DNA of 17,495 nucleotides from a virus (taxonomy: Duplodnaviria > Heunggongvirae > Uroviricota > Caudoviricetes), in IMG/VR virus record IMGVR_UViG_2548876861_000004, positions 1 through 17,495 of that record. One strand, given 5' to 3'. The position numbers and the translations under genes were made by a program. Below the pieces are notes generated by a model that saw only the letters and a list, made by a program, of their open reading frames with translations, was not told the DNA's origin and did no database searches. Of this stretch, positions 1-17,495 are shown piece after piece (position 1 is the first letter of the stretch; each line of letters opens with the position of its first letter).

Positions 1-644
1 GCATCCCTGGCTGCATTACCGGCTGCACTTTCTGCCGTCTTTCTTGACAATTCAGCATCTGCTGCACTTTGTGATGACTCACTGGCTTTTTGAGCGGCCG
101 CAGAGGCCGAGGACGAGGACGCCTCCTCTGACTGCTTTGCAGCGGCTGCACTTTCTGCCGCCTGCCGGGCTGACTCCGATGCATCCCCTGCTGAAGTGTC
201 AGCATTTGCAGCGCTCTCTTCTGCCTGACTGGCTGATATGCCGGCATTCCTCGCTGATGTCTCCGCCTCTCCGGCATTCTTCTTCGCCTCCTCTGCGTGA
301 CGCGCCGCTTCTTCCACCATCAGTTCAAAACGACGCATTGCCTCCGGCCGGACGTCATCCTCCGACATGGCACCGAGAAAATCATTCAGCGTCCCCGGTT
401 GAGAATCTTCATACACGGTGATGGTCCCGGCATGTGATGGAGGGAATCCCTCCACCAACAGAGTGACGCTGTACTGACCATACTCGACGTCCATGCTGTA
501 ACGCCCTGCCTCATCCGGATTTTCAGAGGCCACCGTGTTCACCACCACCGTGGTGCTGTTACGTCTGGCTTTCAGTTGAATGGTGCAGTTCTGTATTGGT
601 TTTCCTGTGCCGTCTTTCAGCACACCTGAAATCTTTACTGCCAT
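1..644 (-). CDS. stf: Side tail fibre protein Stf, N-terminal part (partial; gene continues beyond window start)
   Basis: Minus-strand ATG at 642-644 opens MAVKISGVLKDGTGKPIQNCTIQLKARRNSTTVVVNTV..., which matches the N-terminus of lambda Stf (orf-401) as I recall it. It is followed by an Ala/Ser/Glu-rich low-complexity shaft, and the frame stays open to position 1. Not in the ORF track because no stop lies in the window. Confidence 0.8.
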   Translation of the reverse strand, partial: MAVKISGVLKDGTGKPIQNCTIQLKARRNSTTVVVNTVASENPDEAGRYSMDVEYGQYSVTLLVEGFPPSHAGTITVYEDSQPGTLNDFLGAMSEDDVRPEAMRRFELMVEEAARHAEEAKKNAGEAETSARNAGISASQAEESAANADTSAGDASESARQAAESAAAAKQSEEASSSSASAAAQKASESSQSAADAELSRKTAESAAGNAARD

Positions 645-653
645 ATTCACCCC

Positions 654-682
654 ACAAAAAAGCCCGCCTGAACCGGCGGGCT
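654..682 (-). terminator. Intrinsic terminator-like hairpin downstream of lom
   Basis: Plus strand reads A-run (656-661), stem AGCCCGCC (661-668), loop TGAACC, stem GGCGGGCT (675-682). On the minus strand this is a GC-rich 8-bp stem followed directly by TTTTTT. Read by eye. Confidence 0.5.
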
Positions 683-708
683 GTCATAACACTGTGTTAC
701 CTGGCTAA

Positions 709-1332
709 TCAGAATTTATAGCCGACACCCACGATGAAGCCGTCAGTGCGCCAGTCGCCACTGCCGGAACCTTCATAAGCAAGGTCAATAACCACCGTCT
801 CTACGGGACTGAACTGAATCCCGGCATTCCAGGCCGGCGACAGATGACGCGCAGTATGACCATCACTGGCGGTGGTGGTCTCCTTCACATACCCCGGTTT
901 CACTTCATCACGTCGGTAATCCTGAACACTGTCAGACCAGCGGGTGTACGCCATCCCGGCCATGCCATAGAGACTGACCCGCTCACTGAGCTGCCAGACA
1001 GGGCCGGCCATCAGACTGACATAACGACCGCGCAGGCTTTCATAATGGAAGGTATTTTCACCCGTCTTCATCGTGTCACTTTTCTTCACCGATGCATAAC
1101 TCAGCGCGACAATGCCGCCCAGGTGATCCGTGAACTCATAACGGTATTTCACATTAATCCCTTTCAGATCGCCGGCCCTGATGCCGGTACCGGAAAGCCC
1201 CGGCGTACCGTCCGGGTGCACCTGTGTGTACCCCACAGAAAATGCACCGTGTCCGCTTTCAGCCTGTGCAGGAAAGGCAATTCCTGCCAGCAGGGTAGTA
1301 AACAATAATATCGTTGCGTATAAATGCCGCAT
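709..1332 (-). CDS. lom: Lom outer-membrane beta-barrel protein (Ail/Lom/PagC family), lysogenic-conversion cargo gene
   Basis: Track ORF 709..1368. I place the start at the internal ATG (1330-1332), which has an AAGAGG Shine-Dalgarno 5-6 nt upstream and gives MRHLYATILLFTTLLAGIAFPAQA, a typical signal peptide. The C-terminus ...YEGSGSGDWRTDGFIVGVGYKF matches lambda Lom. The track's upstream extension starts at a GTG inside the J terminator hairpin. Confidence 0.9.
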   Translation of the reverse strand: MRHLYATILLFTTLLAGIAFPAQAESGHGAFSVGYTQVHPDGTPGLSGTGIRAGDLKGINVKYRYEFTDHLGGIVALSYASVKKSDTMKTGENTFHYESLRGRYVSLMAGPVWQLSERVSLYGMAGMAYTRWSDSVQDYRRDEVKPGYVKETTTASDGHTARHLSPAWNAGIQFSPVETVVIDLAYEGSGSGDWRTDGFIVGVGYKF

Positions 1333-1354
1333 GATTACCTCTTTGTTTTCAGTC

Positions 1355-1381
1355 AATAAAAAAGGCACCTCCTGAGGTGCC
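1355..1381 (-). terminator. Intrinsic terminator-like hairpin downstream of J
   Basis: Plus strand reads AATAAAAAA GGCACCTC CT GAGGTGCC. On the minus strand this is a GC-rich 7-8 bp stem followed by TTTTTTATT, between the J stop (1401) and the lom SD. Confidence 0.55.
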
Positions 1382-1400
1382 CGTCCGGGTTAATAAACCG

Positions 1401-4400
1401 TCAGCTGATACTGATCCCTGCCGTGGATTTTTTCATGACCACAACCAGTAAATCACTGATGTACGTTGTCGGCGTCCAGTTGTTCGCACCGGCCGACGAC
1501 ACATTAAACGTCAGGGTGACATGACCCCGCCCTGCCGGCATATCTATCACCGATGAGAACACCCGGCTGACATCCGTTGCCGGTTCATGGAAAATCTCAA
1601 CCCCGTTCTTCAGCACCTGCAGCTTACAGGTGGAATACCAGTACGACTGCTGATTCGGGCTGTTGAAATTCTGGTGTTTCGTCCCGCGAAACAGCACCGG
1701 GGGAATGATAATCTGCCGGTCGAAGCCCTGGTCATCGTAAACTGTGACGGTTACCGTCCCGCTGGCATAACTGTTATTCCGGGGAAAGGCTTTCCCCACC
1801 GTCTTCACCAGGTCGCCTTCAATCTGGTTTGCAGACAGTTTCCCTCTGATGACACAGTTCTCGTTAATGGTGACATTATTGAGCGTGCCGGTATTCGCGG
1901 TAATTGCTCCGCTGATATCCGCGTTCCTTGCCGTCAGCTTTCCTTCCGGCGTCAGGGAAAATGCTGGGGGATTGCCGGACGAGGTGATGCTCACCGCAAA
2001 CAGTCGTTTCAGGAACACGTCGTTCATGAACAGCTGATTCCCCTGCGCCACAAATAACGGAGTGCTGTTGCCGCTCTCCGGATTTATCATCGCGATACGG
2101 TCAGCCAGCAGCAGTATGTTGCTCAGTGGCTGGCCATCAGTATCCTCAATCCCTGCACCAATCCCGGCCACATAGGGAATGCCGTCTTTCGTTTTTTGAA
2201 CCTTCAGCATGTACAGCGCAGCCAGGTCATCATTTGTGTCCTTCTGCACGCGCTGTATCTGCTGTATGGTGGCGCTCTGGTTCTCCAGTGTTTTACTGAC
2301 CGTCTGTGTGATTTCATTGCGGGTTTCGGTGATGGTGGTCTTCATCTCCGCCATCTCATCTGCAAGCTGGCTGTTATCTATCAGTTCCCACAACCCCTGA
2401 GCCAGATGCAGTTTTCCTATTTTTTCCCGGAAAAATTCCAGATACCCTTCACCATCATTGCTGGGCTGCCCGCTGACTTCCACAAACGCAGATTTCCCCA
2501 CCAGGTTGACGCTGCGCACGTAAAACCAGAAATCCGTCCCCGGCTTAATCCGGCTTCCCTGGACAGTCCACTGACTGCCGCTCCCCAGATAACGGGCAGA
2601 TTTTTCCACCTGTGCCGTGTTCGTGATGCGTTTTTCCGAAAACCAGAACTCAAACTGTACCGTCGGGTCATACACCGCAAGACGCGGGACCGCTGTTATC
2701 TGAAAATAGCCCGGTGTCAGCTCAATCGTGGCGGGTACCGCAGGTGCATTAATCCTGAACGTGGTGGTGGCCGGTTCCCCCTGCTGGCCATAACTGTTAA
2801 TTGCCCTGACTGTCAGGGTGTATTCCCCGAGCGGCAGACCACTGAAACGATGCTCTGTATCCGCAGTGATGGCGGTGGTCACCAGACGGCTGTCCTGACC
2901 GCTTCCACTGGTCAGGCGCAGACTGAAGCGCACGCCCTTCACCACCCGCGGCGTGTCCCATTTCGCCTGTGCCAGATACTGACCGTCAGCCGCGCTCACC
3001 TCCACCGTCAGGTGCTGCACTGCCGGTGGAATAACGCTGTTCAGGGTGCCTGACTGCGGCTCAAAGCTGGCCCCGTTATCCACGATGGCTTCTTTTTCCG
3101 GTACGTGCTGCACCGCCGTGATGGCAAAGGTGCCGTCCGTGTTTTCCCGGATGGAGACACAGCGGAACAGGCGACGACGCAGTGACGGCAGGGAGAGTCC
3201 CCATACACCGTATGTCTCCACACCATCAGGCAGGGTGCTGACCTGTATCCGGTCCGGCGCGGGGTGTGCAGTGATGGCCACGCTCACCGGCTTACCGCTG
3301 CCGTTAATCAGGTTCACCGTGGCGGCACCTGTCTCCGGCAGGGTCACCTCACGGTCCAGTGTCAGGGTGCGGCTGGCGGCATCGATGGACAGGATACGTC
3401 CGCCGGTCATGGTCCCGGCATAGTCGTTATCACAGATTTCAATAATGTCACCGGGTGTGTGACGTAGCCCCTGTGACCCGAGCGTGAAATCCACCGTCTG
3501 CGTTTCCAGCAGTCCGGTCTTTATCACCCACAGCCCGGCACGGTGGGCCTGACCGCGACTGGTGCAGCCGAACGCATCCATCTTCAGCAGGTTGCGCCCG
3601 TAGCGCAGTATGGCTTCCGGGTCTTCCACCAGTTCCGTGGAGGTCTGCCAGCCGTTCTGCGGGTCGGTGTAATTCACCTCCACCGCCGTGTGGCGGTCCT
3701 TCAGGGCGCTGAAGCTGTAGCGAACCCCCACGCCGTTATCATCCACCACCACATCGCAGTTGGTGTACGGCCACACCACATCCGACGGGCGGTCCTGAAC
3801 GAACGTCAGCGTCTGGCCGTTCCATACCGGCATACAGCGCATCGCCGAGCAGAAATCACTGAGAACGTCCCACGCCTTACGCTGTTGTGACAGGTACGCA
3901 TTAAAGGTCATCCGCGGCTCTGTGCCCCCGAAACCATCCGGGACCGTCTGGTCGCAGTACTGCGCAATGGCATACAGCGCCCACTTGTCCACATCCGCCG
4001 CCCCCAGGCGTTTTCCCATGCCGTAGCGCGGGTGAGTCAGCATGTCCCACAGGCACCAGACCGGGTTATTGCTGTATGCCGGTTTCAGGCTGCCGTCCCA
4101 GATGCCGCTGTACGTGCGTTTTTCCGGGTCATAGTTTGACGGCACCTGGATGATGCGACCTCGGATATGGTAGTTCACCGTCATCTGCTGACCGCCAAAC
4201 TGCTCCGCATCCACCTGCAGCCCCACAATCGCCGTGTTCGGGTAGCACTGTTTCACATCGATGATTTCGGTGTATGACGACCAGAGCGTCTTATTCTGCA
4301 GCTGGTCCGAGGTGCTGTCCGCTGTCTCCCGGACCATCCGGATGTTAAAGGGCCGCTCAGGCAGATTATCCAGAATCACCGACGCCAGAAACTGCGAGGT

Positions 4401-4877
4401 GGTCTTGCCGTTAATGGTGACATCCTTTTCCGTCACCCAGTTACCGTTACGCTGCAACTGAATCAGCAGTCGGACAGAAGAGGGATTACGGTCGCCCTTT
4501 GAGGTGGTCTCCAACAGTGACTGCACCCCGAAGGTGACCCGCAGGCGGTCAATGTTCGCGGACGTAATGGTGCGCGTCACCGGCTTTGCTTTCGTCACTT
4601 CCACGCCCAGTGCGGTTTCCGCCCCGGAGGACTCAAAGCCTTCAGGTGGTGTCTGCTCCTGCTCCCCGGCGCGCCAGACCGCTGTCACACCATGTATCAC
4701 AGGATTACCGTCCGTGTCCGTCAGCGGGGTTTTGTTCACCAGGATACTCTGCAGCCCCTTCACCGGACCTTCAATCGGCCCTTCACCAATGGCATCAATC
4801 ACGCTCATCATCTGCGTGGACTTAAGATTGTCCTTTGCCTCAACCGGCGTGTGCGCCTTGCCGCCACCTTTACCCAC
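1401..4877 (-). CDS. J: Tail tip / central tail fibre protein J (host specificity protein)
   Basis: 1158-aa ORF. The N-terminus [22 protein letters not shown]... and the long central region match lambda gpJ (1132 aa) from recalled sequence. The start codon is GTG (plus-strand CAC at 4875-4877), preceded by AGGAGAGGGGGA. The C-terminal ~300 aa diverge from lambda. Confidence 0.95.
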
Positions 4878-4920
4878 TCTGTCCCCCTCTCCTGTCTGAT
4901 GTCTGAATCTGTTTATGCCC

Positions 4921-4952
4921 CAAAAACGACAGGCACCCCGGAGGGTGCCTGT
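4921..4952 (-). terminator. Terminator-like hairpin in the I-J spacer, oriented with the operon
   Basis: Perfect 10-bp stem ACAGGCACCC (4929-4938) / GGGTGCCTGT (4943-4952) with loop CGGA. On the minus strand it is followed, after a 2-nt spacer, by TTTTT then GGGG. It sits about 45 nt upstream of the J start. Confidence 0.4.
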
Positions 4953-5085
4953 GTCATGACGGAATAAAATTTCTGAATTTCTTCACATTTTCTGTACGCC
5001 CCCGTGGCAGATATCATTCCCGGGCGTTACAGTTTTTTCGGGCCAATAAAAACAAAACTCCCTGTGGTTAATCTTCATTTTCTGT

Positions 5086-5118
5086 TCCCGCAGCCTCCAT
5101 ACACTGCGGGATTTTTTT
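5086..5118 (+). terminator. Terminator-like hairpin with T7 run, plus-strand orientation (convergent with gene I)
   Basis: Stem CCCGCAG (5087-5093) / CTGCGGG (5104-5110) with a 10-nt loop, then A followed by TTTTTTT (5112-5118) on the plus strand. It lies immediately 3' of the I stop codon (5124-5126). On the minus strand the run reads as A7 upstream of the stem, so it is not a minus-strand terminator. Confidence 0.4.
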
Positions 5119-5123
5119 ATGCT

Positions 5124-5804
5124 TTACCCCTGCCGCCCGATAACCACCACCTTCCCGCCACCACCTTCATCACGGGTGCTGATGTCCTGGGAGATTCGCC
5201 GGGAGCCAACCAGCATTTCACCGTAAGGCACCGGCATCGGGTTCCCCTGGGCAATCATGTTGTCCAGTGACGAAAAATACGTGTTCTGTTTACCGTTATC
5301 CGTACTTTTGTACTCCGGCGTCTTTGCCTTCGGGGCCAGCATCTGAGCCACACCGCCCAGTATCATGCTGGCACCCAGTGAAAACAGCATCGTGGTGGCA
5401 GAAAAACCACCGGCTGCCAGGGCTGAACCCCATAACGCCATCGAGCCTCCGGCCGTGAAGAAAGAGCCCACGATGGCTGCCGCCCCCAGCACAATCTGCA
5501 GTCCGCCTTTCCCTGCACCGGCCAGTCGCGGCACAATATGGATGACCGTTCCCTCACCCAGAGGTTCGTGAAGACGGGCGTACACCGCCTCCGGTGCCGT
5601 GTCCTCACCGCGAATACGTATCTGGTACCAGCCTTCGTTCATCTGACGGCGGAATCCCGGCATCTGCATCGACAGGGCACGGATGGCTTCCGCTGCCGTG
5701 TTCACATACAGGCTGAGGCGGCGGCCAAATCGTTGCAAATCCCCGTGAAGGCAGATGCGTGCCAGTGGCGGTGACGCCAGACAGAATGCGTTCGTCGTTG
5801 CCAT
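5124..5804 (-). CDS. I: Tail assembly protein I
   Basis: 226-aa ORF, ATG start at 5802-5804 with GGAGAGG SD. MATTNAFCLASPPLARICLHGDLQRFGRR... matches lambda gpI. The Gly/Ala-rich C-terminal half is hydrophobic. The 5' 103 nt overlap the 3' end of K, as in lambda. Confidence 0.9.
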   Translation of the reverse strand: MATTNAFCLASPPLARICLHGDLQRFGRRLSLYVNTAAEAIRALSMQMPGFRRQMNEGWYQIRIRGEDTAPEAVYARLHEPLGEGTVIHIVPRLAGAGKGGLQIVLGAAAIVGSFFTAGGSMALWGSALAAGGFSATTMLFSLGASMILGGVAQMLAPKAKTPEYKSTDNGKQNTYFSSLDNMIAQGNPMPVPYGEMLVGSRRISQDISTRDEGGGGKVVVIGRQG

Positions 5805-6445
5805 TTTTCGGAATACCTCTCCCGTTTACTCAGTTGTTCAGGCAGATGGTGAAGCAGTTCACCGTTGCCGCAGTAAATGGCGGCATGATTGGCCACCGAT
5901 GCGCCAAAGCAGCACAGCAGGATATCGCCCGCCTGTGCAGAGGACAGGGGCACCCGGTAAAAGCCGGTGACCGCCATATTGTCCAGGTAAAGGTTCTGAC
6001 CGTTGCGCCACCAGTCATCCTCACGCTCAAAACCCGGCATATCAATTCCCGCCAGATGGTAGGCATCCCGGAACAGCGTGTAACAGTCCGTCACCCCGTG
6101 CTCAAAGCGCCGTCCCGTCAGGTGCGGCACGCAGCGGAATTTGTGAATGTCACCCCGGCAGACCAGCCACCAGGGCAGTGCGCTTTTTATCTGCAGCCGC
6201 CGGTCAGCCTCGCTCAGCCAAGGCAGACCACCGGGATGACTGTGGACCAGTGCCACAATCTCCCCCTGCATCTCTGCCCGCAGCCAGTCTTCCGGTGCAA
6301 TACGAAAATACGCCTCCGGCTCTGCAGAGATATTCACACAAGGGATATACCGCTCCCCCTCCGGCGTTCTCACCACGAAGCCGCACGACTCCGCAGGCAC
6401 ACACCGCCGGGCATGCGCCAGAATCGCTGATTCTGTCTGTGTCAT
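5702..6445 (-). CDS. K: Tail assembly protein K (JAMM/MPN metallopeptidase plus NlpC/P60-like domain)
   Basis: 247-aa ORF starting MTQTESAILAHARR, as in lambda K. It carries a perfect JAMM motif, HSHPGGLPWLSEAD (HxHx7Sx2D). ATG at 6443-6445, 5 nt after the L stop. Confidence 0.9.
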   Translation of the reverse strand: MTQTESAILAHARRCVPAESCGFVVRTPEGERYIPCVNISAEPEAYFRIAPEDWLRAEMQGEIVALVHSHPGGLPWLSEADRRLQIKSALPWWLVCRGDIHKFRCVPHLTGRRFEHGVTDCYTLFRDAYHLAGIDMPGFEREDDWWRNGQNLYLDNMAVTGFYRVPLSSAQAGDILLCCFGASVANHAAIYCGNGELLHHLPEQLSKRERYSEKWQRRTHSVWRHRHWHASAFTGICNDLAAASACM

Positions 6446-6450
6446 TGGAT

Positions 6451-7149
6451 TTACTGCGAAAGTTTGTTAATGGAAAGGAAACCGCCAAAATTAGCCACCA
6501 TGCCGCGCATCTCACACCCGCGCATGCACTTGCTGCATCTGTCCTTACGGATATCGGTGGTGGGTTTATCGAACTCATCCGCCACCGCAGGACCGTTATA
6601 CCCGCATTCATCTCCCCGGTAATCCCACATACAGGTGTTCGCCAGCATGATGCGACCGGGAAACAGCGCTCCGTCCGTCTCCGTCGGTGTTGCCAGCACA
6701 AACGAGGCTGTCATGGCCGTCAGCTCTGACATCTGCTCCACCACCCAGCGGTCGCTCAGCTCCTGCTCCGGGTCCGCTTCCGGATTGCCCGCCACAAAAT
6801 TCACCGCATCCAGAAAACGGGCATACACCCGGCGGCGGACCACCGTGGCCCCCACCAGGCTCTGCAGGTCCTCCGCCATTCCGGTGACCAGACCGAACAG
6901 ATTGGACACCGTCAGTGACGGGCGGGCACTGCTGCCCTTCCCGTTCATCTCAAAACCGCTGCCGTCAATCGGGTATGCCTGATATTGCCGCCCCTGCCAG
7001 GTAACCGCCTCCCCTTTTTCATTCAGCTCATTGCAGAAAAAATACCGCTCACCACCCTGTACCGTCAGGTCGATTTCCCAGAGTACCACCCGCGGTGACT
7101 GCTCTGATTTAACCGACTCGTTCAGACTTTCTTCGTGAATATCCTGCAT
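6451..7149 (-). CDS. L: Minor tail protein L
   Basis: 232 aa, the same length as lambda gpL. The Cys-rich C-terminal motif (CSKCMRGCEMRGMVANFGGFLSINKLSQ) matches lambda gpL. The start ATG overlaps the M stop (TGATG). Confidence 0.92.
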   Translation of the reverse strand: MQDIHEESLNESVKSEQSPRVVLWEIDLTVQGGERYFFCNELNEKGEAVTWQGRQYQAYPIDGSGFEMNGKGSSARPSLTVSNLFGLVTGMAEDLQSLVGATVVRRRVYARFLDAVNFVAGNPEADPEQELSDRWVVEQMSELTAMTASFVLATPTETDGALFPGRIMLANTCMWDYRGDECGYNGPAVADEFDKPTTDIRKDRCSKCMRGCEMRGMVANFGGFLSINKLSQ

Positions 7150-7478
7150 CAGTTCACCACCTGCTTAAACTCCGCGCTGAATTCAACCCGCAGCATGCGA
7201 ACCCGTGATGACCAGGCGGCACAGGTCACCTTTATCTGCCGCCAGGCATAAGGCGGTGTCCACAGAAACGCCTTCCAGCCACCGTGCTCTGCCAGGAATG
7301 CCTCCAGATGTCGGGCCTCCTCCCGGGTCACGGAAAGCGTCACACGGTATGTTTTCAGGTCAGCATTCAGCCCCGCCGCCATACGCTGCGAATACCCGTC
7401 ACCAAAACGCACTTCACGCACCGATGGCTGCGAGTTCACCTCCATATCCGGCTTCACTTTCCAGCGAAATGTTTTCAT
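7149..7478 (-). CDS. M: Minor tail protein M
   Basis: 109 aa, the same length as lambda gpM. ATG at 7476-7478 overlaps the H stop (ATGA); GGAGG SD upstream. Confidence 0.92.
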   Translation of the reverse strand: MKTFRWKVKPDMEVNSQPSVREVRFGDGYSQRMAAGLNADLKTYRVTLSVTREEARHLEAFLAEHGGWKAFLWTPPYAWRQIKVTCAAWSSRVRMLRVEFSAEFKQVVN

Positions 7479-10054
7479 CGCCTGCCTCCGGAAAATACGC
7501 CGCCATCACGCATCTGCGCCTGAATCTCATCCTGCGCCCCCTTGCGGGCCATGTCATACACCGCCTTCATCAGCTGCGGCCCCGCCCGTCCGTTGGTGCC
7601 GTCGTTCTGAATCACCACGTGATTGTTCTGATTAAAATTAATGCCTTCCGTCCGCCGCATCTGCGCCGGACTTCCGGCACCGCCCACATAACCACCTTCC
7701 GCATAGCCCCGCATCAGGCGGTACAGGTTGCCGACGCCAATCCGGCTGGTTGCCTCCTTCGTGAAGACAAACTCCCCGCGATGAACAATCCCCGCAGGTT
7801 CATATTTACCCCCCGTCCCCGTAAATCCCCCGGTCGCGAAATGGAAGTTCGCCGCCGCAGCCTGAATGGCCGTCCCCGTGGAGGCAGACGCACCACCACC
7901 GAAAGCACCGCCAATGGCGCTGCCGATACTCCCGACTATCCCCACCATCGCCTGCTTCAGAAAAATCTCTGTCAGCATGGAGAGCACAGAACGGGTGAAA
8001 CCACGCCAGTTCTGTTCGCTGCCGGTCAGCATCGCTGCCATATTCTGTGCAATACCGTCAAAGGTCTGCGTGGCCACGCTTTTAACCTGCGAAAAACTGT
8101 CCGTCGCACTTTCCGCCCACTCGCCCCAGCCGGACTTCAGACCGGCCATCCAGCTTCCACGAAGCTGCTCCTCCGCAGACCAGGTGTTCTTCAGTGCAGA
8201 TGTGGCCTTCGCCAGCGCATCCGGATTATCACCGTACACGTCACGAAGGCGCTGCTCTTCCGACTCCCGCTGCGCCTGACGGTCGGTGAGGCCCCGCGCC
8301 TGGGCACTGATTGCCGCCTGCTTCGCGCTCTGCTGCTGCTCAAACCGCGCAGCCTGCTGTGCCAGCTCATTCAGCCGTTTCTGGTGTTCAACTTTGTCTC
8401 CCAGCTCAGCCAGCTGGCGTTTGTACTCCAGCGTCTCTTTCTCATGGGTCAGCAGGGATTTTTCCTGCTCAGATAACTGCCGTTTCGTGGCTGCCTCTTT
8501 CAGGACCGCATACTGATTTTCCGCTTTCCATAAATCGCGACGCTGCTGGCTGATTTTCTCATTCGCACCGCTGAGTTTTTCCAGCGTCCGGAGCTCGGTT
8601 TCAAGCGCCAGCAGGGCAGCATGCGCCTGGTCTTCCTGACGCTCACCGGCTGACACTTTGACTCCTGACGACTTCGGCTTTTTCAGCGTCGATTCATAAT
8701 CCTTTTTCGCCGCCGCCATCAGCGTGTTGTAATCCGCCTGCAGGATTTTCCCGTCTTTCAGGGCCTTATTCAGTTCTTCCTGACGGGCGGTATATTTCTC
8801 CAGCGGCGTCAGCAGACGCTCATACGCCTTCTGCGCCTCTCCGGTATACTTCAGCTGTGATGCGTCCCGTTCGGCCCGGTCCCTGGCGGCCAGTTCACCG
8901 GCTTTTTCCATATCCGACTGCAGCGTGGCCGCTGCCAGCCCCAGACGGGCATTTTCCCGGTCATCCCATGCACCCTGAAGGTTCGCACGAAAAGAGGCGG
9001 TTTTTCCCCGGCGCTGGCTCCGGCTCTGGTACCACTGCCATTTTTTATCCGCCTCATCAAATGCCTTCTGTGCACTGGCGAGCATATCCGCTGAGGACTC
9101 AGGACGACCGATATCCAGAATGGCATCCCACATCGATTTGAATGCCTTCCCTGTTTTATCCGCCCAGGTCTCCAGTGTCCCCATGTTTTCTTTCAGGCGA
9201 CGGGTCTGCTCATCAAAGCCTTTCGTGGCGATATCGTTCGCCGCCTGTAAGGCCCCGGCCTCATCACCGGAACGCTGCAGCTGTGCAACATACGCAATCT
9301 GCTCTGCCGTCACGTTACGGAACTGGCGCGCCATCGCCATCAGTCCCGACGTCGGGTCAGTGGTCAGCTTCCCGAAGGCTTCAGCGACTTTATCCACCTC
9401 CACACCGGATGCAGACGCAAAACGCGCGACACTCTGGTTGATGGCATCAAACTGTTCACCACCACGCACACCGGCATTCACCAGGGCTGCCAGTGACTCT
9501 CTCGCCTGGTTAAACGTCAGCCCTGCTGCCTGCCCGGCTCTTGAGAGAGTCAGCATACGATCGGCAGTCAGTCCGGACTGATTACCGGAAAGAACCAGGG
9601 TTTTATTAAACGCTGAAAGCGTGGAATCCCCCTGGTACCAGGCGTACGCCAGCGCACCTGTCGCCACCGCCAGCGAGGTGACCCCGACCATCGGCAGGGT
9701 GATCGCACCGGCAAGTCCCCTGAACATGGGGATCATCCCGCCGAAGGAGTCCTTCACCTGACCGCCCTGTTGCAGCAGGATCAGCCAGGGATTCTGACCA
9801 CCGGCAAGCTGCGTGGCGATATCCGTAAACTGTGCGGGCAGGGTTCGCATGGCCGCTTTATACTGCCCGACGGAAATCCCGGCTTTTTGTGCAGCCAGCG
9901 CCTGACGACTCAGGTTCTGCTCAACAACACCGGCGGTTTTTCTGGCGTCAGTCTCCAGTCCGGAAAAATGACGCCTTACCCGGCTCATCTGCTCATCGAA
10001 ACGGACCGCATCCAGACTCAGGTCAATAACAAGATCACCAACCGGCTGGGACAT
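7475..10054 (-). CDS. H: Tail tape measure protein H
   Basis: 859 aa. MSQPVGDLVIDLSLDAVRFDEQ... and the Gly-rich C-terminal segment match lambda gpH (853 aa). ATG at 10052-10054 with GGAGGTG SD; overlaps the end of the T frame by 20 nt. Confidence 0.95.
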   Translation of the reverse strand: MSQPVGDLVIDLSLDAVRFDEQMSRVRRHFSGLETDARKTAGVVEQNLSRQALAAQKAGISVGQYKAAMRTLPAQFTDIATQLAGGQNPWLILLQQGGQVKDSFGGMIPMFRGLAGAITLPMVGVTSLAVATGALAYAWYQGDSTLSAFNKTLVLSGNQSGLTADRMLTLSRAGQAAGLTFNQARESLAALVNAGVRGGEQFDAINQSVARFASASGVEVDKVAEAFGKLTTDPTSGLMAMARQFRNVTAEQIAYVAQLQRSGDEAGALQAANDIATKGFDEQTRRLKENMGTLETWADKTGKAFKSMWDAILDIGRPESSADMLASAQKAFDEADKKWQWYQSRSQRRGKTASFRANLQGAWDDRENARLGLAAATLQSDMEKAGELAARDRAERDASQLKYTGEAQKAYERLLTPLEKYTARQEELNKALKDGKILQADYNTLMAAAKKDYESTLKKPKSSGVKVSAGERQEDQAHAALLALETELRTLEKLSGANEKISQQRRDLWKAENQYAVLKEAATKRQLSEQEKSLLTHEKETLEYKRQLAELGDKVEHQKRLNELAQQAARFEQQQSAKQAAISAQARGLTDRQAQRESEEQRLRDVYGDNPDALAKATSALKNTWSAEEQLRGSWMAGLKSGWGEWAESATDSFSQVKSVATQTFDGIAQNMAAMLTGSEQNWRGFTRSVLSMLTEIFLKQAMVGIVGSIGSAIGGAFGGGASASTGTAIQAAAANFHFATGGFTGTGGKYEPAGIVHRGEFVFTKEATSRIGVGNLYRLMRGYAEGGYVGGAGSPAQMRRTEGINFNQNNHVVIQNDGTNGRAGPQLMKAVYDMARKGAQDEIQAQMRDGGVFSGGRR

Positions 10055-10906
10055 ATCTCACACCTCCGGAAATCCCCGCTGAAGCCATCATTAATGCGAC
10101 ATCATCCTCGCTGACATCCGCCACATCCGCAGACGATAAAATCTCACGCCCTCCGTCCCCACCAAACCGGACGCCTCCGGCAAGTCCTGCCGCTTTCTGC
10201 ATCAGCATTTTTTCCTCATCCGGCATCTCCGTCTGCGCTTCCTCACGCCGGGGGGCAAGCAGACTGAAATCAGAGGGATGCATATCCGGATCGCAAAAAA
10301 ACAGGCTGAGTACGGCGTACGTCAGCCCGGAAAAATGCATATCCAGTTGGGTATCGAGAAAATAATGCGTACGGTAAAAATGTCGCCAGTCGGCATATTC
10401 GGTGGATGTCATCCCGGCAAGCATGGCGCGCCAGTCAGGCCTCCCCATCTCACGCGCCAGTCTGAGGGCAAAATTCAGCTCGCCGTCGAAGACTTTCCCG
10501 CAGAAAAATCATCATCAGTCAGCGCGTTATTTTTCGCCACTTCGGTGCTGTCAGTATCCGCATGAACAGCCCCGCTCATCCCGGACAGACGCAACACCAC
10601 ATCTTCCGCCCGGGCAATGGCATCCGCAGGCCAGGTGGTGAGCACCTCCTGTTCGATCTGCATCACAGCCTCATTCATTGACGGTGATGCCGTTTTCTGC
10701 GGATGGTTATGCCACAGGGACATCGCCACCAGAAACGCGCCGGTTCTGACGAGATCTTCCACGCTTACCTGCAGGTTGCCGCTGGATTCTGCCTGTTCTG
10801 CACGCCGTTTCAGGAGGGCAAGATGCTCAATACGCTGCAGCGCAGACAATTCGGAAAGCGTGACGGACACACCGTTATATTCAAATTGTTCTGTTTTCAG
10901 AAACAT
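10035..10906 (-). CDS. G-T: Tail assembly chaperone G-T fusion, made by a programmed -1 ribosomal frameshift
   Basis: The G frame (10475..10906) and the T frame (stop at 10035-10037) overlap. I translated across the junction by hand: slipping -1 at GGGAAAG gives ...GKVFDGELNFALRLAREMGRPDWRAML..., which runs into the track ORF 10035..10448. Confidence 0.85.
10475..10906 (-). CDS. G: Tail assembly chaperone G
   Basis: 143 aa. MFLKTEQFEYNGVSVTLSELSALQRIEHLAL... matches lambda gpG (140 aa). ATG at 10904-10906 with GGAGG SD. Confidence 0.92.
   Translation of the reverse strand: MFLKTEQFEYNGVSVTLSELSALQRIEHLALLKRRAEQAESSGNLQVSVEDLVRTGAFLVAMSLWHNHPQKTASPSMNEAVMQIEQEVLTTWPADAIARAEDVVLRLSGMSGAVHADTDSTEVAKNNALTDDDFSAGKSSTAS
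10493..10499 (-). promoter_or_regulatory. Slippery heptamer G GGA AAG for the G-T -1 frameshift
   Basis: Plus-strand CTTTCCC at 10493-10499 is GGGAAAG on the minus strand, in register G GGA AAG, six codons before the G stop. This is the same heptamer used by lambda. Confidence 0.8.
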
Positions 10907-10919
10907 GTATTACCTCCGT

Positions 10920-11672
10920 TTACCCTGCAGCGCCCGCTTCAGTAACGGTGACTTCAGCCACTGCGGCGAACTGACCATTTCCGCTCACCACAGGGATCTG
11001 CACCTTACCTGTCGCCACGCCGTTTACCGTAATTGTCATATCTTTCACACTAATGGTGGCTTTCGACGGATCGGCGGAAACCGCTCTGAACGTCTTGTCG
11101 GTTGCACTTTCCGGCTCAAAAGAAACCGTCAGGGTGGTTGTTTTCCCTTTTGCCACCGTACCGGATGTCGGCGTCACCTTAATCGCAGTGACCGGCGTAA
11201 TTTTGCTGCGTTCTTCCGCTACAGAAGGTTTGCCCACGTTGGTCACTTTCACCGTGCGGGTGATCACTTCTTTCGCCGTCACGGCCTTACCGATACTGCT
11301 GACCCAGCCACGAAACACATCCACCGTGCCGTTCGGAAAACGGATTTTATAGGCCCGCACATCCCCGCTTTCAAACCAGCCTATAAGCCCTTTCTGACCT
11401 TCTTCTCCCGGTTTCCAGGCCAGCGTAAAACTGGTATCTCCTGCAGACTTCTGCCCCTGCCCGGTCGCGGTCCAGTCCGCGTCTTCATCATCCAGGTAGT
11501 TATCATCGTAGGGTTCTGCCGTCATCTCGCCCGGCGTCAGATCCTTCACCTTAGCCAGTCGCTGCCAGTCATCGTCTGACAACGGGTTTGCATAGGCGTC
11601 ACCCTGACCGTTATAAACCCACAGGGTGGTACCGGCACCTTTTACCGGCTCAAGGGGATTTGGTGTTGACAT
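10920..11672 (-). CDS. V: Major tail tube protein V with C-terminal Ig-like domain
   Basis: 250 aa. ...[10 protein letters not shown]...[15 protein letters not shown]...[36 protein letters not shown] matches lambda gpV; the C-terminal ~90 aa resemble its Ig-like (Big_2) domain. ATG at 11670-11672. Confidence 0.93.
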
Positions 11673-11679
11673 ATCGTCC

Positions 11680-12075
11680 TCACATCTCGTATGTAATGGA
11701 ATAAGTCAGATCCGCAGAACTCCATAACGCCATATCGTCATCACGACGATACTCATAGCCCTGCGTAACCATCGTGGTAATCAGGTCTGCCAGTGCCGGG
11801 ATCGCAGTCATCGCCGGATAAATCCGGCTTTCCATCCACGAATCCAGCTCCGAATCCGGTACCTGTGCTGGTAAAAACACCTCAATATGCAGTGTGGCCC
11901 GCCAGGTATCTGCATCCAGCTCTTCACCGGTATACTCTGCATCCGTCAGATAAACCGCGACCGCGGGAAAATCCTCTTCGTCAAAAACAACGGGGCGACC
12001 ATCAAACAGCGTCGCCCCGTGTTCATGCAGCTCCAGTGCATCCAGCACTGCAGCACGGATATCAGTATGTTTCAT
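11680..12075 (-). CDS. U: Tail terminator protein U
   Basis: 131 aa, the same length as lambda gpU. ATG overlaps the Z stop (ATGA). Confidence 0.9.
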
Positions 12076-12605
12076 CGTTTTATCGCAATCCTCAGTTGTT
12101 GTTTCAGCGCGTATGCCAGTTCTCCGGGCAGACGTTCACGCCGGATACGGTCAACATTCTCATCAAACGCCTGTTTCAGTGGGGCCGCCATCGGGATTTT
12201 CACCACATCAATGGGGTAACGGTTTTTCCCGACCACACGCTGCATGACATGCCAGCGACCATTTTTTAATCGCTGAATAAATGCCCGCTGATAACGATGC
12301 TGACCGGCTTTGAGTATGCTGTCCGGACGACGCCCCGGCATCCTGATCCCCAGCTTAATCACCGGGAGATCACCGCGGTTAACGATAATTCTGGCATTCG
12401 GATTTCTGACCGTGGCCCGTTTCAGCCTGGACCGTTCCTTAACCAGTTTCCGTCTCACCCTGGTTTCCCGGGCAACCTGTGATGAAGACTGATTAATCGC
12501 CGTTGTGGCCACGCGGTTAATGGTCATTGCAGAAGCCGCCGGAATGGCGTTTTTACGAACCCGGCTCAGATTATCAATCGCCTGCTCAAGCCCTTTTATC
12601 GCCAT
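12072..12605 (-). CDS. Z: Tail completion protein Z
   Basis: 177 aa. MAIKGLEQAIDNLSR...AFIQRLKNGRWHVMQRVVGKNRYPIDVVKIPMA matches lambda gpZ. ATG at 12603-12605. Confidence 0.9.
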   Translation of the reverse strand: MAIKGLEQAIDNLSRVRKNAIPAASAMTINRVATTAINQSSSQVARETRVRRKLVKERSRLKRATVRNPNARIIVNRGDLPVIKLGIRMPGRRPDSILKAGQHRYQRAFIQRLKNGRWHVMQRVVGKNRYPIDVVKIPMAAPLKQAFDENVDRIRRERLPGELAYALKQQLRIAIKR

Positions 12606-12620
12606 AATTTCACCCTGCGT

Positions 12621-12974
12621 TTATCGTCGCCGGTTAACGGCGGGTGGTTGCCCACGGTTGAGCCAGAGATAACAGCTGCCCCCGTCATCCGGAGAAACAC
12701 GATCCACCCAGAACGTCTCACCATTAATGGTCAGCGTGTCACCACGCCGCACAGCACGAACCGTATCCGTCCGCACAAATAATGACGGGCTGCTTCCTTC
12801 AATACGGACCCCGCTACCGGCAAATCCCAGCGACTCCGGATCGTCAAAAACCCCCTGAACTTCTCCGCCACACTGTGCCCCCGAGGTGAACTGTGCACAG
12901 AGCCCCATCACTTCAACAATCGTACTGTCCACCCCGGCAAGGGCAGCATCAAAGGCATTCTGAAAATCACGCAT
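12621..12974 (-). CDS. FII: Head-tail joining protein FII
   Basis: Track ORF 12621..13010. I place the start at the internal ATG 12972-12974, giving 117 aa (the lambda gpFII length) that open MRDFQNAFDAALAG... and end ...GDTLTINGETFWVDRVSPDDGGSCYLWLNRGQPPAVNRRR. This ATG overlaps the FI stop (ATGCGTGA). Confidence 0.85.
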   Translation of the reverse strand: MRDFQNAFDAALAGVDSTIVEVMGLCAQFTSGAQCGGEVQGVFDDPESLGFAGSGVRIEGSSPSLFVRTDTVRAVRRGDTLTINGETFWVDRVSPDDGGSCYLWLNRGQPPAVNRRR

Positions 12975-13341
12975 AAACAGCCATTCCGCCATCAACGTGT
13001 GTTTTTGCATCTGAGGACATAATCAGAATCACCCGACCAACATCCGCAATCTCAACGGATTCCCCTGTTTCACCATCAATGCCACAGAGATGGAGGCAGG
13101 TCAGAACTCTGATGCGCGTTAACGCACCGGATGTATCCTCACGAACATCATGAGCCGCGGTTTCCCGCTCCCGGATCACCGTATCCCCAACCTGAACATC
13201 CTCGCCGGATGACTGTATTTCCTCTTCCCATTCCGCCACCCGCTGCGCTATCTCTGCGGCACTCCCGGATATATCCGGCTCACGCCCCAGAATCAGGGCC
13301 AGTTCATCAAGCCGTTTCAGATTTTGCTCTTTCGTTGCCAT
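12967..13341 (-). CDS. FI: DNA-packaging / head assembly protein FI (divergent)
   Basis: Track ORF 12967..13389 starts at a GTG 3 nt after the E stop. I place the start at ATG 13339-13341 (MATKEQNLKRLDELALILG...), which has a G-rich SD-like run (CAGGGGGCTGAT) upstream and aligns with the lambda FI N-terminus. 124 aa, more diverged than neighbouring genes. Confidence 0.75.
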   Translation of the reverse strand: MATKEQNLKRLDELALILGREPDISGSAAEIAQRVAEWEEEIQSSGEDVQVGDTVIRERETAAHDVREDTSGALTRIRVLTCLHLCGIDGETGESVEIADVGRVILIMSSDAKTHVDGGMAVYA

Positions 13342-13355
13342 ATCAGCCCCCTGTG

Positions 13356-13384
13356 AAAAAAGACACGGGGGCATTTCGCCCCCG
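13356..13384 (-). promoter_or_regulatory. GC hairpin plus T6 run between E and FI (possible attenuator)
   Basis: Plus-strand stem CGGGGGC (13366-13372) / GCCCCCG (13378-13384) with loop ATTTC. On the minus strand a T6 run (13356-13361) follows after a 4-nt spacer, just 5' of the FI SD. The spacer makes terminator function uncertain. Confidence 0.3.
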
Positions 13385-13392
13385 CTCACGGA

Positions 13393-14421
13393 TTATTTCA
13401 CCTGTACCACCACAAACTCATCCGGGTCCGGCAACACCATCAGCGGCGCGGACTGCGTCATGGTAAATTCACGGGCGGGATCCCCCACCGTCAGCCAGTG
13501 TTTCGGATAACGGGAAGAGGCCACCACACCTTCGGACAACGCCTGCGCATCCTGAATGGCACCGTAACAACGGATCCCATCTGCAGCAGTATTCCCCAGA
13601 ACCAGCATGCCCTCCGGCAGATAACGTTTTTCGATACCGTCTTCTGCTATATAAGACGTTTTCGCCACCACAATGGCCAGATCGCCGTAATACCCCTTGA
13701 AGGACACCACTGCGCCCAGATCTTTCACTGCCGTTTCGAGTTGAGAATTTGAACCGCGACGGGTATCCAGTTTTTCGCGGAACAGCTTAAAACCATTCAG
13801 AAGACGCCAGACGGTACCGTCCATAATGGCAATATTCACAAGACCGCTGGCCTGGTCGCAGTAGAGGTCAAGATCATGTGTAGGATCGAACGTGTCACGA
13901 TCCTGTTTTGACCACTCCTTACCACTACCCTGAGTGATGTTATTCTTCGTCGACCTGCCAAAATCGACCTCAATTTTCTCGAACTGGTCTCCTTCCATCG
14001 TATATTTGCCATACAACACAGCATTTACCGCCTGTATTTCTTCCACCTGGACAATCGCGTGCTCTTCCTGTTTGAGGTTATCGGTAATGATACGCAGACG
14101 GCGGTAAGCCGGATCGTTCAGTTGAGCCGGATCTTCACCAGGAAGGCGCTCAACCGCCTGCTGGTAATTAAATTCGTGTTTCGGCTTGACGTAGCCCGGA
14201 CGTAACACGCGGGTTTCACCACCACGATGACGCAGCACTTTTCCTTCAACAACCGGGGAGACATAGGCCGCCACCGGCGTTTTTCCGGTAATTTTGTCCA
14301 GCATCACCTCTTCGGTATGGAAATTCACCGTACGGCGGAAAAACAGCTCCAGAAACAGCGCACGAAATTTCACTTTTTGTTCGGTATAACCGAGTAACTG
14401 GCGGGTCGTAAACAATCCCAT
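13393..14421 (-). CDS. E: Major capsid protein E
   Basis: 342 aa (lambda gpE is 341). ...PGYVKPKHE...NNITQ...LDTRRGSNS.LETAVKDLG...TTGDPAREFTM.QSAPLM matches lambda gpE. ATG at 14419-14421. Confidence 0.95.
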   Translation of the reverse strand: MGLFTTRQLLGYTEQKVKFRALFLELFFRRTVNFHTEEVMLDKITGKTPVAAYVSPVVEGKVLRHRGGETRVLRPGYVKPKHEFNYQQAVERLPGEDPAQLNDPAYRRLRIITDNLKQEEHAIVQVEEIQAVNAVLYGKYTMEGDQFEKIEVDFGRSTKNNITQGSGKEWSKQDRDTFDPTHDLDLYCDQASGLVNIAIMDGTVWRLLNGFKLFREKLDTRRGSNSQLETAVKDLGAVVSFKGYYGDLAIVVAKTSYIAEDGIEKRYLPEGMLVLGNTAADGIRCYGAIQDAQALSEGVVASSRYPKHWLTVGDPAREFTMTQSAPLMVLPDPDEFVVVQVK

Positions 14422-14450
14422 AAATCAGTTCCTTTCATTCAGAAATCAGT

Positions 14451-14470
14451 CAGGCCACCGCGGTGGCCTG
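14451..14470. repeat. Perfect 20-bp palindrome in the D-E intergenic region
   Basis: CAGGCCACCGCGGTGGCCTG is its own reverse complement and contains a SacII site. It lies between the D stop (14479-14481) and the E SD. No T-run follows on either strand. Confidence 0.6.
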
Positions 14471-14478
14471 ATAACGTG

Positions 14479-14826
14479 TTACGGCAGCGCCGCGTGACTC
14501 AGGGCACTGCCGGCAAAGGCATTTGCCTTTTTGTGTTCATCCACACTTTCAGGCCAGCGGATTGCCTCCGTCGCAAAGGTCCCCGACTTGTAATAGGTCA
14601 GTACCGTCTCTGTGCCTTCAAGCGGCAGTACCAGTATGCCAACTGCACTACCGGCTTTCTGTCCGTCCCAGACCACCAGTTTCCCGCTGGCTTCATCCAG
14701 CATCAGGGGCGTCAGTGCCGGTGTTGCCGAGGAAATCCCGCTGCTGCCTGTGGCGGTATGAGCCGGATCATTACCGGCAAAAATACGTACTTCCGCACGC
14801 TGTTCAGTGATGGTTTTCGTTACCAT
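14479..14826 (-). CDS. D: Capsid decoration protein D
   Basis: 115 aa. ...DPAHTAT...TPLMLD...GILV...YYKSGTF...AFAG matches lambda gpD (110 aa). ATG at 14824-14826 with AGGAGG SD. Confidence 0.92.
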   Translation of the reverse strand: MVTKTITEQRAEVRIFAGNDPAHTATGSSGISSATPALTPLMLDEASGKLVVWDGQKAGSAVGILVLPLEGTETVLTYYKSGTFATEAIRWPESVDEHKKANAFAGSALSHAALP

Positions 14827-14862
14827 ATTGTAAAAACCTCCTGTTGATGATCAGCACTGACT

Positions 14863-15678
14863 TCATGGCATGGCCATGAGCATTTTCACGTCCGCATCAC
14901 CGTCTGCTGACGTCTGTGGCACGCCACCCTGTACCGCTGCCGGTGAATGGTTCGCCATGATGCGTTCAAACAGGGCGGTTGTGGATGCAGAGACCGGTTC
15001 TGCCTTACCTGATCCCGCAGCCAGCACAGCCCGGGCGCTCTCCACAGTCATTCCCGGGCAGGCAGCCAGTTGTTCAGCCTGCGCCTCAGCCCCTTTTGCC
15101 TCATCCAGTGCCATGATCTGATCACGGAGTGAGGGTCCGGCATCCGCCTGCGGTGAAGCAGCCAGGATCGGGCGGGCTTTTTCCACCGTCATCTCCGGCA
15201 TCGCCGCCAGCGTTGCCGCCAGTTGTTCACGACCGTTCGCTTCTTCACACGCCATAATGCGATCGGCTTCACTCTGCGTGGATGCCACCGGCTGCTGCGG
15301 TGCCGCCGCGGCCAGAATCGCCCGGGCCTGTGCAACGCTCATGCCCTGTTGTCCTGCCAGCATCGTGGCAAGCTGTTCACGTCCTTTCGCTTCCTGGCAT
15401 GTCAGGATCCCCATCACTCGCTGGTTCTCCTGCGCGGCGGCTTCCGTTGCAGTTAATTGCGGCATAGTGCCTCCTCTGACATTACTGTTCAGCGCCGTGG
15501 CCATCACACTGATGGCATCCGACGCATTGACTAATTCATCCGCCAGCCCGGCCTCAATGCCGGACTGACCTTCAAAAACGGCGGCCTCTGTTCCCGTGAC
15601 GGCATCAACAGACAGACCGGTAAACATCGCCACTTTTTCGGCAAACATCCGGCGCGCCGCATCAATGCGCTGCTGCAT
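14863..15678 (-). CDS. Nu3: Putative Nu3-like scaffold protein from an in-frame internal start within C
   Basis: By analogy to lambda, where Nu3 starts in frame at C residue 239. The nearest in-frame ATGs here are residue 231 (15676-15678, AGAGG about 11 nt upstream) and residue 241 (15646-15648). The exact start is not determinable from sequence. Confidence 0.35.
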   Translation of the reverse strand: MQQRIDAARRMFAEKVAMFTGLSVDAVTGTEAAVFEGQSGIEAGLADELVNASDAISVMATALNSNVRGGTMPQLTATEAAAQENQRVMGILTCQEAKGREQLATMLAGQQGMSVAQARAILAAAAPQQPVASTQSEADRIMACEEANGREQLAATLAAMPEMTVEKARPILAASPQADAGPSLRDQIMALDEAKGAEAQAEQLAACPGMTVESARAVLAAGSGKAEPVSASTTALFERIMANHSPAAVQGGVPQTSADGDADVKMLMAMP

Positions 15679-16357
15679 GTCCTGGCGAACCTCTGCCGGT
15701 AAGGCTTCAAACTGATTGCCATCCACCTTGTGCGCCCCTGAGTAAATCAGCGTGATATCCACACCGGCCTGCGCCAGATGACCGGCATAGCTGACATGGC
15801 TCATCATCACGCCAATGGAGCCGATACGGGATGTCTGGGTAACCAGCCGTCGGGAGCAGGCCGACGCCAGCAGCATGGCTGCAGAACAGGCCGTGTCATT
15901 GCACAGTGCCCAGACCGGCTTCTGCTGACGGAGGCGGTAAATCATGTCAGCGCAGTCAAACGCGCCGGCGGCCTGCCCGCCCGGACTGTCAATGTCCAGC
16001 AGTATGCCCCGCACCTGGCTATCTGCCATTGCCTGCTGAAGACAGGCGACAATGCCGTCATAGCCAGTCATTCCGGAAAATGGCCGCATCCCCCCCAGCC
16101 GGTGCACCAGCGTGCCGGTCACCGGCAGTACCGCAATACCGTTCACCACCCGGTAAACACGGGCCGGTCGTTTACCTCCGGCCATGTACTCGTCCGTTTC
16201 AGCCAGCATTCCGGGAGCATCAAGCTGTACCTGCTGTTGTGGTACCGAAAGACTTGCTGCCCCCATCTCGCGCCCGAGCGCGCAAAAGAAAACCCGCGCA
16301 TAGGCGGGCTCCAGAAGCAGCGGTTCATTGAATGCTGCGGCAATAATGTGTGAAAGA

Positions 16358-16368
<11 letters not shown>
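14863..16368 (-). CDS. C: Prohead protease C (S49/ClpP-like N-terminal domain) with expanded C-terminal scaffold-like region
   Basis: 501 aa. ...NLSHIIAAAFNEPLLLEPAYARVFFCALG and ...DSPGG.AAGAFDCAD...KPVWAL.ND...RRLVTQT.R.GSIGVMM match lambda gpC (439 aa). The start is GTG (plus-strand CAC at 16366-16368) with an AGGAG SD about 10 nt upstream; it overlaps the B stop by 11 nt. Confidence 0.9.
14929..15432 (-). repeat. Tandem in-frame repeats (about 3.3 copies of a ~50-aa module) in the C/Nu3 C-terminal region
   Basis: Protein-level repeats: RVMGILTCQEAKGREQLATMLAGQQGMSVAQARAILAAA / RIMACEEANGREQLAATLAAMPEMTVEKARPILAAS / QIMALDEAKGAEAQAEQLAACPGMTVESARAVLAAG / partial ERIMANH. Matching DNA motifs (GTTCACGNCCNTTCGCTTC) recur at about 150-nt spacing. 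The copies are diverged. Confidence 0.7.

Positions 16369-17495
<1,127 letters not shown>

Follow-up and report, generated by a model that had tools for sequence, protein, structure and literature searches.

A triplicated scaffold module of the phage 21 type in the C-terminal third of a lambda C/Nu3-like head protease

In phage lambda, Nu3 is the scaffold, which interacts with itself, with the head protease C, with the portal protein B and, as judged by two-hybrid analysis, with E, and which is degraded by C before packaging (PMC3224144). Lambda C (NC_001416, 4418–5737; 439 amino acids, aa) carries one copy of the small C-terminal module considered here, at aa 357–399, followed by a short remnant, DRLM. 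In the GenBank record 'Bacteriophage 21 head gene operon' (M81255.1), gene 6, the Nu3 analogue, contains three repeat_region features, named 'Tri1 box', 'Tri box' and 'Tri3 box' and accompanied by the note 'function unknown; putative'. The paper behind that record is said to be Smith & Feiss 1993, Gene 126:1-7. The DNA analysed here, referred to as the window, is a stretch of 17,495 nucleotides (nt) from a virus of the class Caudoviricetes (IMG/VR record IMGVR_UViG_2548876861_000004, positions 1–17495). The region of interest, 14929–15432, corresponds to aa 313–480 of a gpC homologue of 501 aa, in which three modules are found as compared with the single one of lambda. Judged from sequence comparison, the feature is with near certainty the triplicated scaffold module of the phage 21 type.

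A reading of the sequence alone had proposed about three full copies plus a partial copy of a module of ~50 aa. The three-copy repeat is real, and its units, together with what follows them, are located as follows.

15304–15429, minus strand: module R1, aa 314–355 (hidden Markov model, HMM, 72 bits; shuffle test)
15151–15270, minus strand: module R2, aa 367–406 (HMM; shuffle test)
15010–15129, minus strand: module R3, aa 414–453 (HMM; shuffle test)
14953–14973, minus strand: LFERIMA, aa 466–472, read as the remnant of a fourth copy, helix 1 only
14866–14952, minus strand: C-terminal tail, aa 473–501, low-complexity and acidic (alignment)

Smith-Waterman scores between the copies were 95 (R1–R2), 81 (R1–R3) and 97 (R2–R3), as compared with shuffle means of 25–27 and a standard deviation of ~5. 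The copy pairs therefore reach z = 10.5–14.3 (R1 scoring 14.3 against R2 and 10.5 against R3), with the observed score matched in 0 of 2000 shuffles, and the internal repetition is significant. An HMM derived from the module found three matches here (72–80 bits) versus one in lambda C (80 bits). The core of the module spans ~40 aa, so that the proposed length of ~50 aa applies only when the linker is counted (period 47–53 aa); the linkers between R1–R3 comprise 7–11 residues and are rich in P/Q/A/S/G. Similarly, the three full copies of the earlier proposal stand, while its partial copy reduces to FERIMA (aa 467–472), which scored alone gives z about 0 and is not significant against shuffles. 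The element keeps its position in phage 21 (FEHFM), in Salmonella (FDQFM) and in lambda (DRLM), and it has a 15-nt DNA motif in common with the starts of R2 and R3; it is read here as the helix-1 remnant of a module. Among the full copies, R1 is the closest to lambda's single module and has 2–3 additional residues (MGIL) in helix 1. R3 is the most diverged, with the arginine of the EAKGRE turn, otherwise present in 96% of modules, replaced by alanine (GAE). The tail behind the remnant ends in a motif conserved in the alignment of homologues, D-x-D-V-K-M-L-M-A-M-P.

Comparison with lambda demonstrated that the two proteins are alike in the S49 peptidase domain (60% identity across the first 300 aa), in the B-C-D-E gene order, in the nested scaffold frame, and in possessing the module, the remnant and a hydrophobic C-terminal tail. 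The homology of the C-terminal module to that of lambda Nu3 was found by global alignment to lambda C, by the HMM and by PHROGs matches. The earlier reading had given lambda one full and one partial copy, which both alignment and HMM bear out, so lambda does not carry the same number of modules (three versus one). The expansion also explains the added length (501 versus 439 aa), provided that the shorter upstream linker is subtracted: the stretch from the first module to the C-terminus is longer by 105 aa, the Ser/Thr/Ala-rich linker ahead of the module is longer by 36 aa in lambda, and a further 7 aa are missing more upstream, giving a net gain of 62 aa.

The gene is 98.5% identical over 1506 nt to gene 5 of phage 21 (M81255.1, OL657228.1), and 10 of the 501 aa differ from phage 21 gp5 (491/501 identical), two of these ten substitutions lying in the remnant (FERIM in the window versus FEHFM in phage 21). 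The phage 21 protein has the same length (501 aa) and the same internal ribosome-binding site and ATG, and its three annotated boxes coincide with R1–R3 when placed on the window.

15295–15398: Tri1 box, aa 324–358, overlapping R1
15148–15258: Tri box, aa 371–407, equal to R2
15004–15117: Tri3 box, aa 418–455, equal to R3

The triplication is thus already known, a statement of prior knowledge that rests on the annotation in the phage 21 GenBank record. A further 17 or so E. coli phage isolates match the gene at 95–98.5% nt identity, and the three-copy form is present in all ~20 isolated phages with this gene type. Furthermore, the 603-nt Nu3-like segment at the 3' end of the gene matches 1,870 of 5,426 complete E. 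coli genomes; when 40 matches were sampled at even spacing along the complete-genome ranking, 38 consisted of one full-length 603-nt piece, i.e. three copies. The best match of this segment, 100% identical, is in E. coli O145 RM9872, which suggests an origin from a prophage of enterohaemorrhagic E. coli.

The copies are 45–52% identical in protein and only 53–62% identical in DNA, and because of the latter Tandem Repeats Finder reports no array in the region, the repeat being visible at the protein level only. Between-copy nt identity is 0.60–0.78 at codon positions 1–2 and 0.33–0.40 at position 3, and per copy pair 10–13 of the 18–21 identical residues use different codons. With position 3 near-saturated while positions 1–2 are conserved, the triplication is old, and it is selection on the peptide rather than on the DNA that maintains the likeness of its copies. 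Homologues from Salmonella (Gifsy-1-type prophage prohead proteases; P0147, P0152, P0154, P0157, P0160 and others), only 50–64% identical to the window's scaffold region, also have three modules with the GRE motif in all three; for Gifsy-1 itself, the comparison consisted only of DNA and protein matches. The low identity at position 3 and the triplication held in common with Salmonella agree with the earlier view that the copies are diverged and do not reflect recent replication slippage or an assembly artefact. Nothing in the window's three copies speaks for such an origin, the one observation in its favour being a perfect 156-aa duplication in the singleton P0001 (see below). Slippage or artefact is refuted by the divergence of the copies and by the occurrence of the same three copies in the independently sequenced phage 21 (M81255.1, OL657228.1), in ~20 isolates and in ~1,870 complete genomes, so that its probability is negligible.

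In OL657228.1, two 'transcription factor CII' sites are annotated within the gene, at 15213–15226 and 15447–15460 of the window (plus strand), and both are matches to the pattern TTGYN6TTGY. These sites, together with antisense open reading frames of 77–103 aa that overlap the region, could be taken to mean that the repetition acts at the DNA or RNA level, as a regulatory repeat, as CII sites or as an antisense gene. However, the CII pattern occurs at chance frequency in the window (2 observed versus 2.7 expected), the antisense frames are without support and lie in a stretch of 63% G+C, and there is neither an Rfam match in the window nor a Tandem Repeats Finder array. Above all, the conservation between copies sits at codon positions 1–2 of the minus-strand frame, a pattern by which a function at the DNA or RNA level is effectively refuted; it must be regarded as extremely improbable.

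A profile of the three copies, searched against 1.84 billion representative proteins at E ≤ 0.001, matched 407 proteins. Among the best 150 of these 407, all but one of the 55 full-length proteins (≥380 aa) have one module near the C-terminus and the remaining one has three, and many of the others are stand-alone proteins of 120–200 aa with one module. The same module is found in diverse S49 prohead proteases at about 40–180 aa from the C-terminus, most of the distant relatives being single-module proteins. Since 54 of the 55 diverse full-length homologues are single-copy, the multi-copy array appears to be derived and confined to an enterobacterial clade, and one copy is the common and probably the ancestral state. 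From 123 divergent modules the consensus I-x-x-[CL]-x-E-A-K-G-R-E-x-L-A-x-x-L-A-x-x-P-G-M-[TS]-V-[ED]-x-A-[KR]-x-I-L-A-A-A-P was obtained, in which five residues of the EAKGRE turn (E, A, G, R, E) show 89–98% conservation.

An AlphaFold2 model of aa 302–501, built on a 19-sequence alignment, gave a pLDDT of 70.7 and a pTM of 0.29, with helices inside the modules and low confidence in the linkers and the tail, apart from a short terminal helix in the latter, which is a beads-on-a-string picture. R2 modelled alone was a three-helix bundle (pLDDT 82.4, pTM 0.61). The prediction for each module is thus a small bundle of three helices, joined to its neighbours by flexible linkers and not packed against them. 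The best viral fold matches were the C-termini of other S49 prohead proteases (TMq 0.69–0.75), and each of the families phrog_8399 (head scaffolding) and phrog_8940 (capsid assembly protein) of PHROGs matched three stretches. A Foldseek search of the whole 200-aa model against the PDB returned nothing, as expected for a beads-on-a-string model with a pTM of 0.29. A PDB sequence search with the scaffold part yielded only matches to the Lac repressor, which are at chance level and were rejected. By sequence, the scaffold part has no Pfam family and no solved relative, only a sub-threshold HHH match on R3. The scaffold of phage P22 binds coat protein via a small C-terminal helical element; no similarity of the module to the solved domain of this P22-type coat-binding helix-turn-helix was found in sequence or fold. 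By analogy only, the modules may be compared with the domains of staphylococcal protein A, with UBA/CUE domains and with RuvA domain III, which are small helical protein-binding units, some of them in tandem for multivalency.

The sub-threshold match raises the alternative that the modules are helix-hairpin-helix (HhH)-like DNA-binding units, and the stretch L-A-x-x-P-G-M-T-V-E-x-A-R-x-I-L does resemble the HhH consensus. The Pfam HHH score, however, is 13 bits against a gathering cutoff of 24 (E = 0.095), is obtained on one of the three copies (R3) and, being below threshold, led to rejection of this reading. The G-h-G hairpin, moreover, is without its second glycine, the sequence relatives are without exception prohead proteases or scaffolds, and the lambda scaffold leaves the procapsid before DNA enters, as is established lambda biology. 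The match to RuvA concerns its domain III, a protein-binding three-helix domain, and not the HhH domain of RuvA. A role in DNA binding is accordingly considered very unlikely.

The same region also lies in a shorter, internal reading frame, in line with the earlier statement that in lambda it is shared with Nu3.

15470–15475, minus strand: Shine-Dalgarno (SD) sequence AGGAGG, 4 nt ahead of an in-frame ATG at 15465 (read from the sequence)
14863–15465, minus strand: Nu3-like internal open reading frame (ORF), 200 aa, from M302 (MPQLTAT...), homologue of phage 21 gene 6

The Nu3-like ORF has the same frame and C-terminus as the protease. The ATG at 15465 is exactly the annotated start of phage 21 gene 6, at which a putative ribosome-binding site is marked in both M81255.1 and OL657228.1 and whose product is labelled scaffolding protein in the phage 21 records. 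Given the SD sequence and the in-frame ATG, the three modules would be present both on the protease and on the putative 200-aa Nu3-like product.

The strong SD and ATG of the window, AGGAGGcactATG (15463–15475, minus strand), are conserved in lambda at 5342 (AGGAGGgcgaATG). The nu3 start given for lambda in RefSeq (5132, ATG) corresponds in the window to ATT (Ile234), so that an equivalent of this start would be unusable here. The downstream ATG may thus be the internal start that is conserved, in which case lambda Nu3 would have 131 aa and not 201 aa.

The gene as a whole and its surroundings in the window are as follows.

14863–16368, minus strand: gpC-type head protease/scaffold gene, 501 aa, GTG start (ORF list, Pfam)
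15490–15933, minus strand: S49 (SppA/ClpP-like) serine peptidase domain, aa 146–293 (Pfam)
16358–17491, minus strand: portal gene fragment, preceding the gpC homologue
14479–14826, minus strand: decoration-like (D-like) gene, 115 aa, following the gpC homologue
13393–14421, minus strand: major-capsid-like (E-like) gene, 342 aa
1401–4877, minus strand: J-like tail tip gene, 1158 aa, in the late operon

The peptidase domain was assigned to Peptidase_S49 (PF01343; E = 5.9e-35, 120.9 bits as compared with a cutoff of 24.9), and in a sequence search aa 77–290 matched the solved SppA structures 3rst and 4kwb (E ~2e-16). The whole window (1–17495) is a lambda-like head-tail late operon on the minus strand, in which the gpC homologue has the portal gene on one side and the genes for the decoration and major capsid proteins on the other. 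The portal-C-D-E order is also that of phage 21 and lambda, and the same order recurs in close relatives, where Pfam typing gives Nu1, A, W, portal, S49, HDPD, Phage_cap_E, FI, FII, Z, U, V, G, T, H. On account of the S49 domain and of its place in the head-tail operon, ORF 14863–16368 is with near certainty the equivalent of lambda C/Nu3, in a phage-21-type allele (genes 5/6) of an E. coli prophage.

The most likely function of the array is that of a multivalent scaffold domain for procapsid assembly, common to the protease and to the internally initiated Nu3-like protein. The C-terminal region would be synthesised in two forms, as the end of the S49 protease and, in greater amount, as a Nu3-like scaffold from the internal SD and ATG. 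The helical modules, with their near-invariant E-A-K-G-R-E turn, would serve as protein-protein interaction units whose partners are further scaffold molecules, the inner face of the major capsid protein, or both; this binding would nucleate and fill the procapsid and tether the protease within it, and the protease would then destroy the scaffold ahead of DNA packaging. With three modules on flexible P/Q/A/S linkers, each scaffold chain would be multivalent. The odds on this mechanism of binding and valency are judged to be about even.

The number of modules varies among close relatives. The 120 closest protein clusters were taken, 109 of which represent complete proteins; the cluster counts given here are not frequencies.

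2 full and 0 truncated modules: 24 clusters
2 full and 1 truncated modules: 66 clusters
3 full and 0 truncated modules: 16 clusters
4 full and 0 truncated modules: 2 clusters
5 full and 1 truncated modules: 1 cluster

Despite the 66 clusters with two full and one truncated module, the three-copy form dominates in complete E. coli genomes. The two-copy alleles (451 aa) show at least three different in-register junctions (P0083, P0099, P0138) and so arose independently. In the 482-aa allele (P0040; L004 7050-7250, E. coli GCA_000458315.1), a 57-bp in-frame deletion in R2, bounded by the microhomologies CTGGCGGC and CTGGCTGC, has taken the second half of this module (helices 2–3; equivalent to window ~15150–15210). 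This allele resides in apparently intact head-tail operons, with an E protein 98.2% and a protease domain 98.0% identical to those of the window. In the index of the assembly collection, 3,592 blocks contain exactly this 482-aa protein, and a search for isolated phages with the 2.5-copy allele found none. The 551-aa alleles have four copies, the added unit being an R3/R2 hybrid. The arrays still grow and shrink, by in-register recombination or by microhomology deletion.

Several further proteins depart from this series. P0151, a partial protein of 346 aa from a separate E. coli lineage (47% identity within the scaffold region), comprises four modules. Of these, the last three are near-identical (GDQIMALPEAKGREQLAQ…), which points to an independent and recent expansion or to gene conversion. 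The E. coli singleton P0001 (657 aa) has a perfect 156-aa duplication that restarts inside the last part of the protease domain (…DELVNASDAISV…), so that R1–R3 are repeated; it may be very recent, or a misassembly or other artefact. P0081 (721 aa) and P0085 (577 aa) are chimeric ORFs that run as a normal C through R3 and then pass into unrelated sequence, breaking at the same point, directly after …ARAVLAAGSG, with continuations that look tail-fibre-like, one of them Gly/His-rich. They are probably prophage deletions in which C has been fused to distal tail genes.

The only serious rival to a multivalent scaffold is that the extra copies are neutral padding, with one module working as in lambda and the rest tolerated as by-products of unequal recombination that leave assembly, stoichiometry and processing unaffected. 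Consistent with padding, alleles of 2, 2.5, 3 and 4 modules go with a capsid protein and a protease domain that are 98% identical, 54 of the 55 diverse homologues manage with a single copy, and R3 has lost the near-invariant arginine of EAKGRE. On the other hand, all three copies keep the structural consensus despite near-saturated synonymous sites, and three copies persist in E. coli as well as Salmonella lineages, in each of the ~20 phage isolates and in the majority of the ~1,870 complete E. coli genomes matched; this persistence counts against padding, which would be expected to decay or vanish. Padding is therefore held to be unlikely. The occurrence of alleles of 2, 2.5, 3 and 4 modules with a ~98% identical capsid protein makes a partial redundancy of the modules probable. 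Copy number may, as the earlier reading suggested, affect scaffold-capsid stoichiometry or processing, and the allele series suggests that different copy numbers are tolerated.

Several observations nevertheless weigh against a multivalent, capsid-binding array. The conserved C-terminal tail could be the capsid-binding element, with the modules as mere oligomerisation units or spacers. If the prophages with two to four modules are viable, three copies are not strictly needed, and the loss of arginine leaves R3 without a residue that is otherwise near-invariant. In addition, lambda gpNu3 is reportedly intrinsically disordered, according to the title of Medina et al. 2011 as given in a reference list, and in view of that title the predicted bundle may be marginally stable or fold only on binding.

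A more speculative extension of the multivalent-scaffold reading is that the array acts as an evolvable dial for scaffold valency, in-register recombination between the old repeats supplying alleles of 2, 2.5, 3, 4 or more modules and copy number tuning the rate of procapsid nucleation, size fidelity or the amount of packaged protease. This extension is doubtful; if it were true, the prophages would constitute a natural allelic series for the control of T=7 shell assembly by scaffold valency.

As a discovery the array is minor: the Tri boxes have been on record since the early 1990s, about a third of complete E. coli genomes carry the array, and a triplicated scaffold module, known in phage 21 and extremely common in E. 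coli genomes, is ordinary. The additions made here are incremental, namely that the multi-copy state is derived, that alleles differ in copy number and that the module is predicted to fold into three helices. For the family at large, S49 prohead-protease/scaffold fusions widely carry the module as a signature, so that defining it as a domain and solving its structure would close a gap, and the conserved SD and ATG bear on the true start of the lambda Nu3 reading frame. Finally, the natural alleles with two to four modules beside the same capsid protein offer a ready genetic series on scaffold valency.

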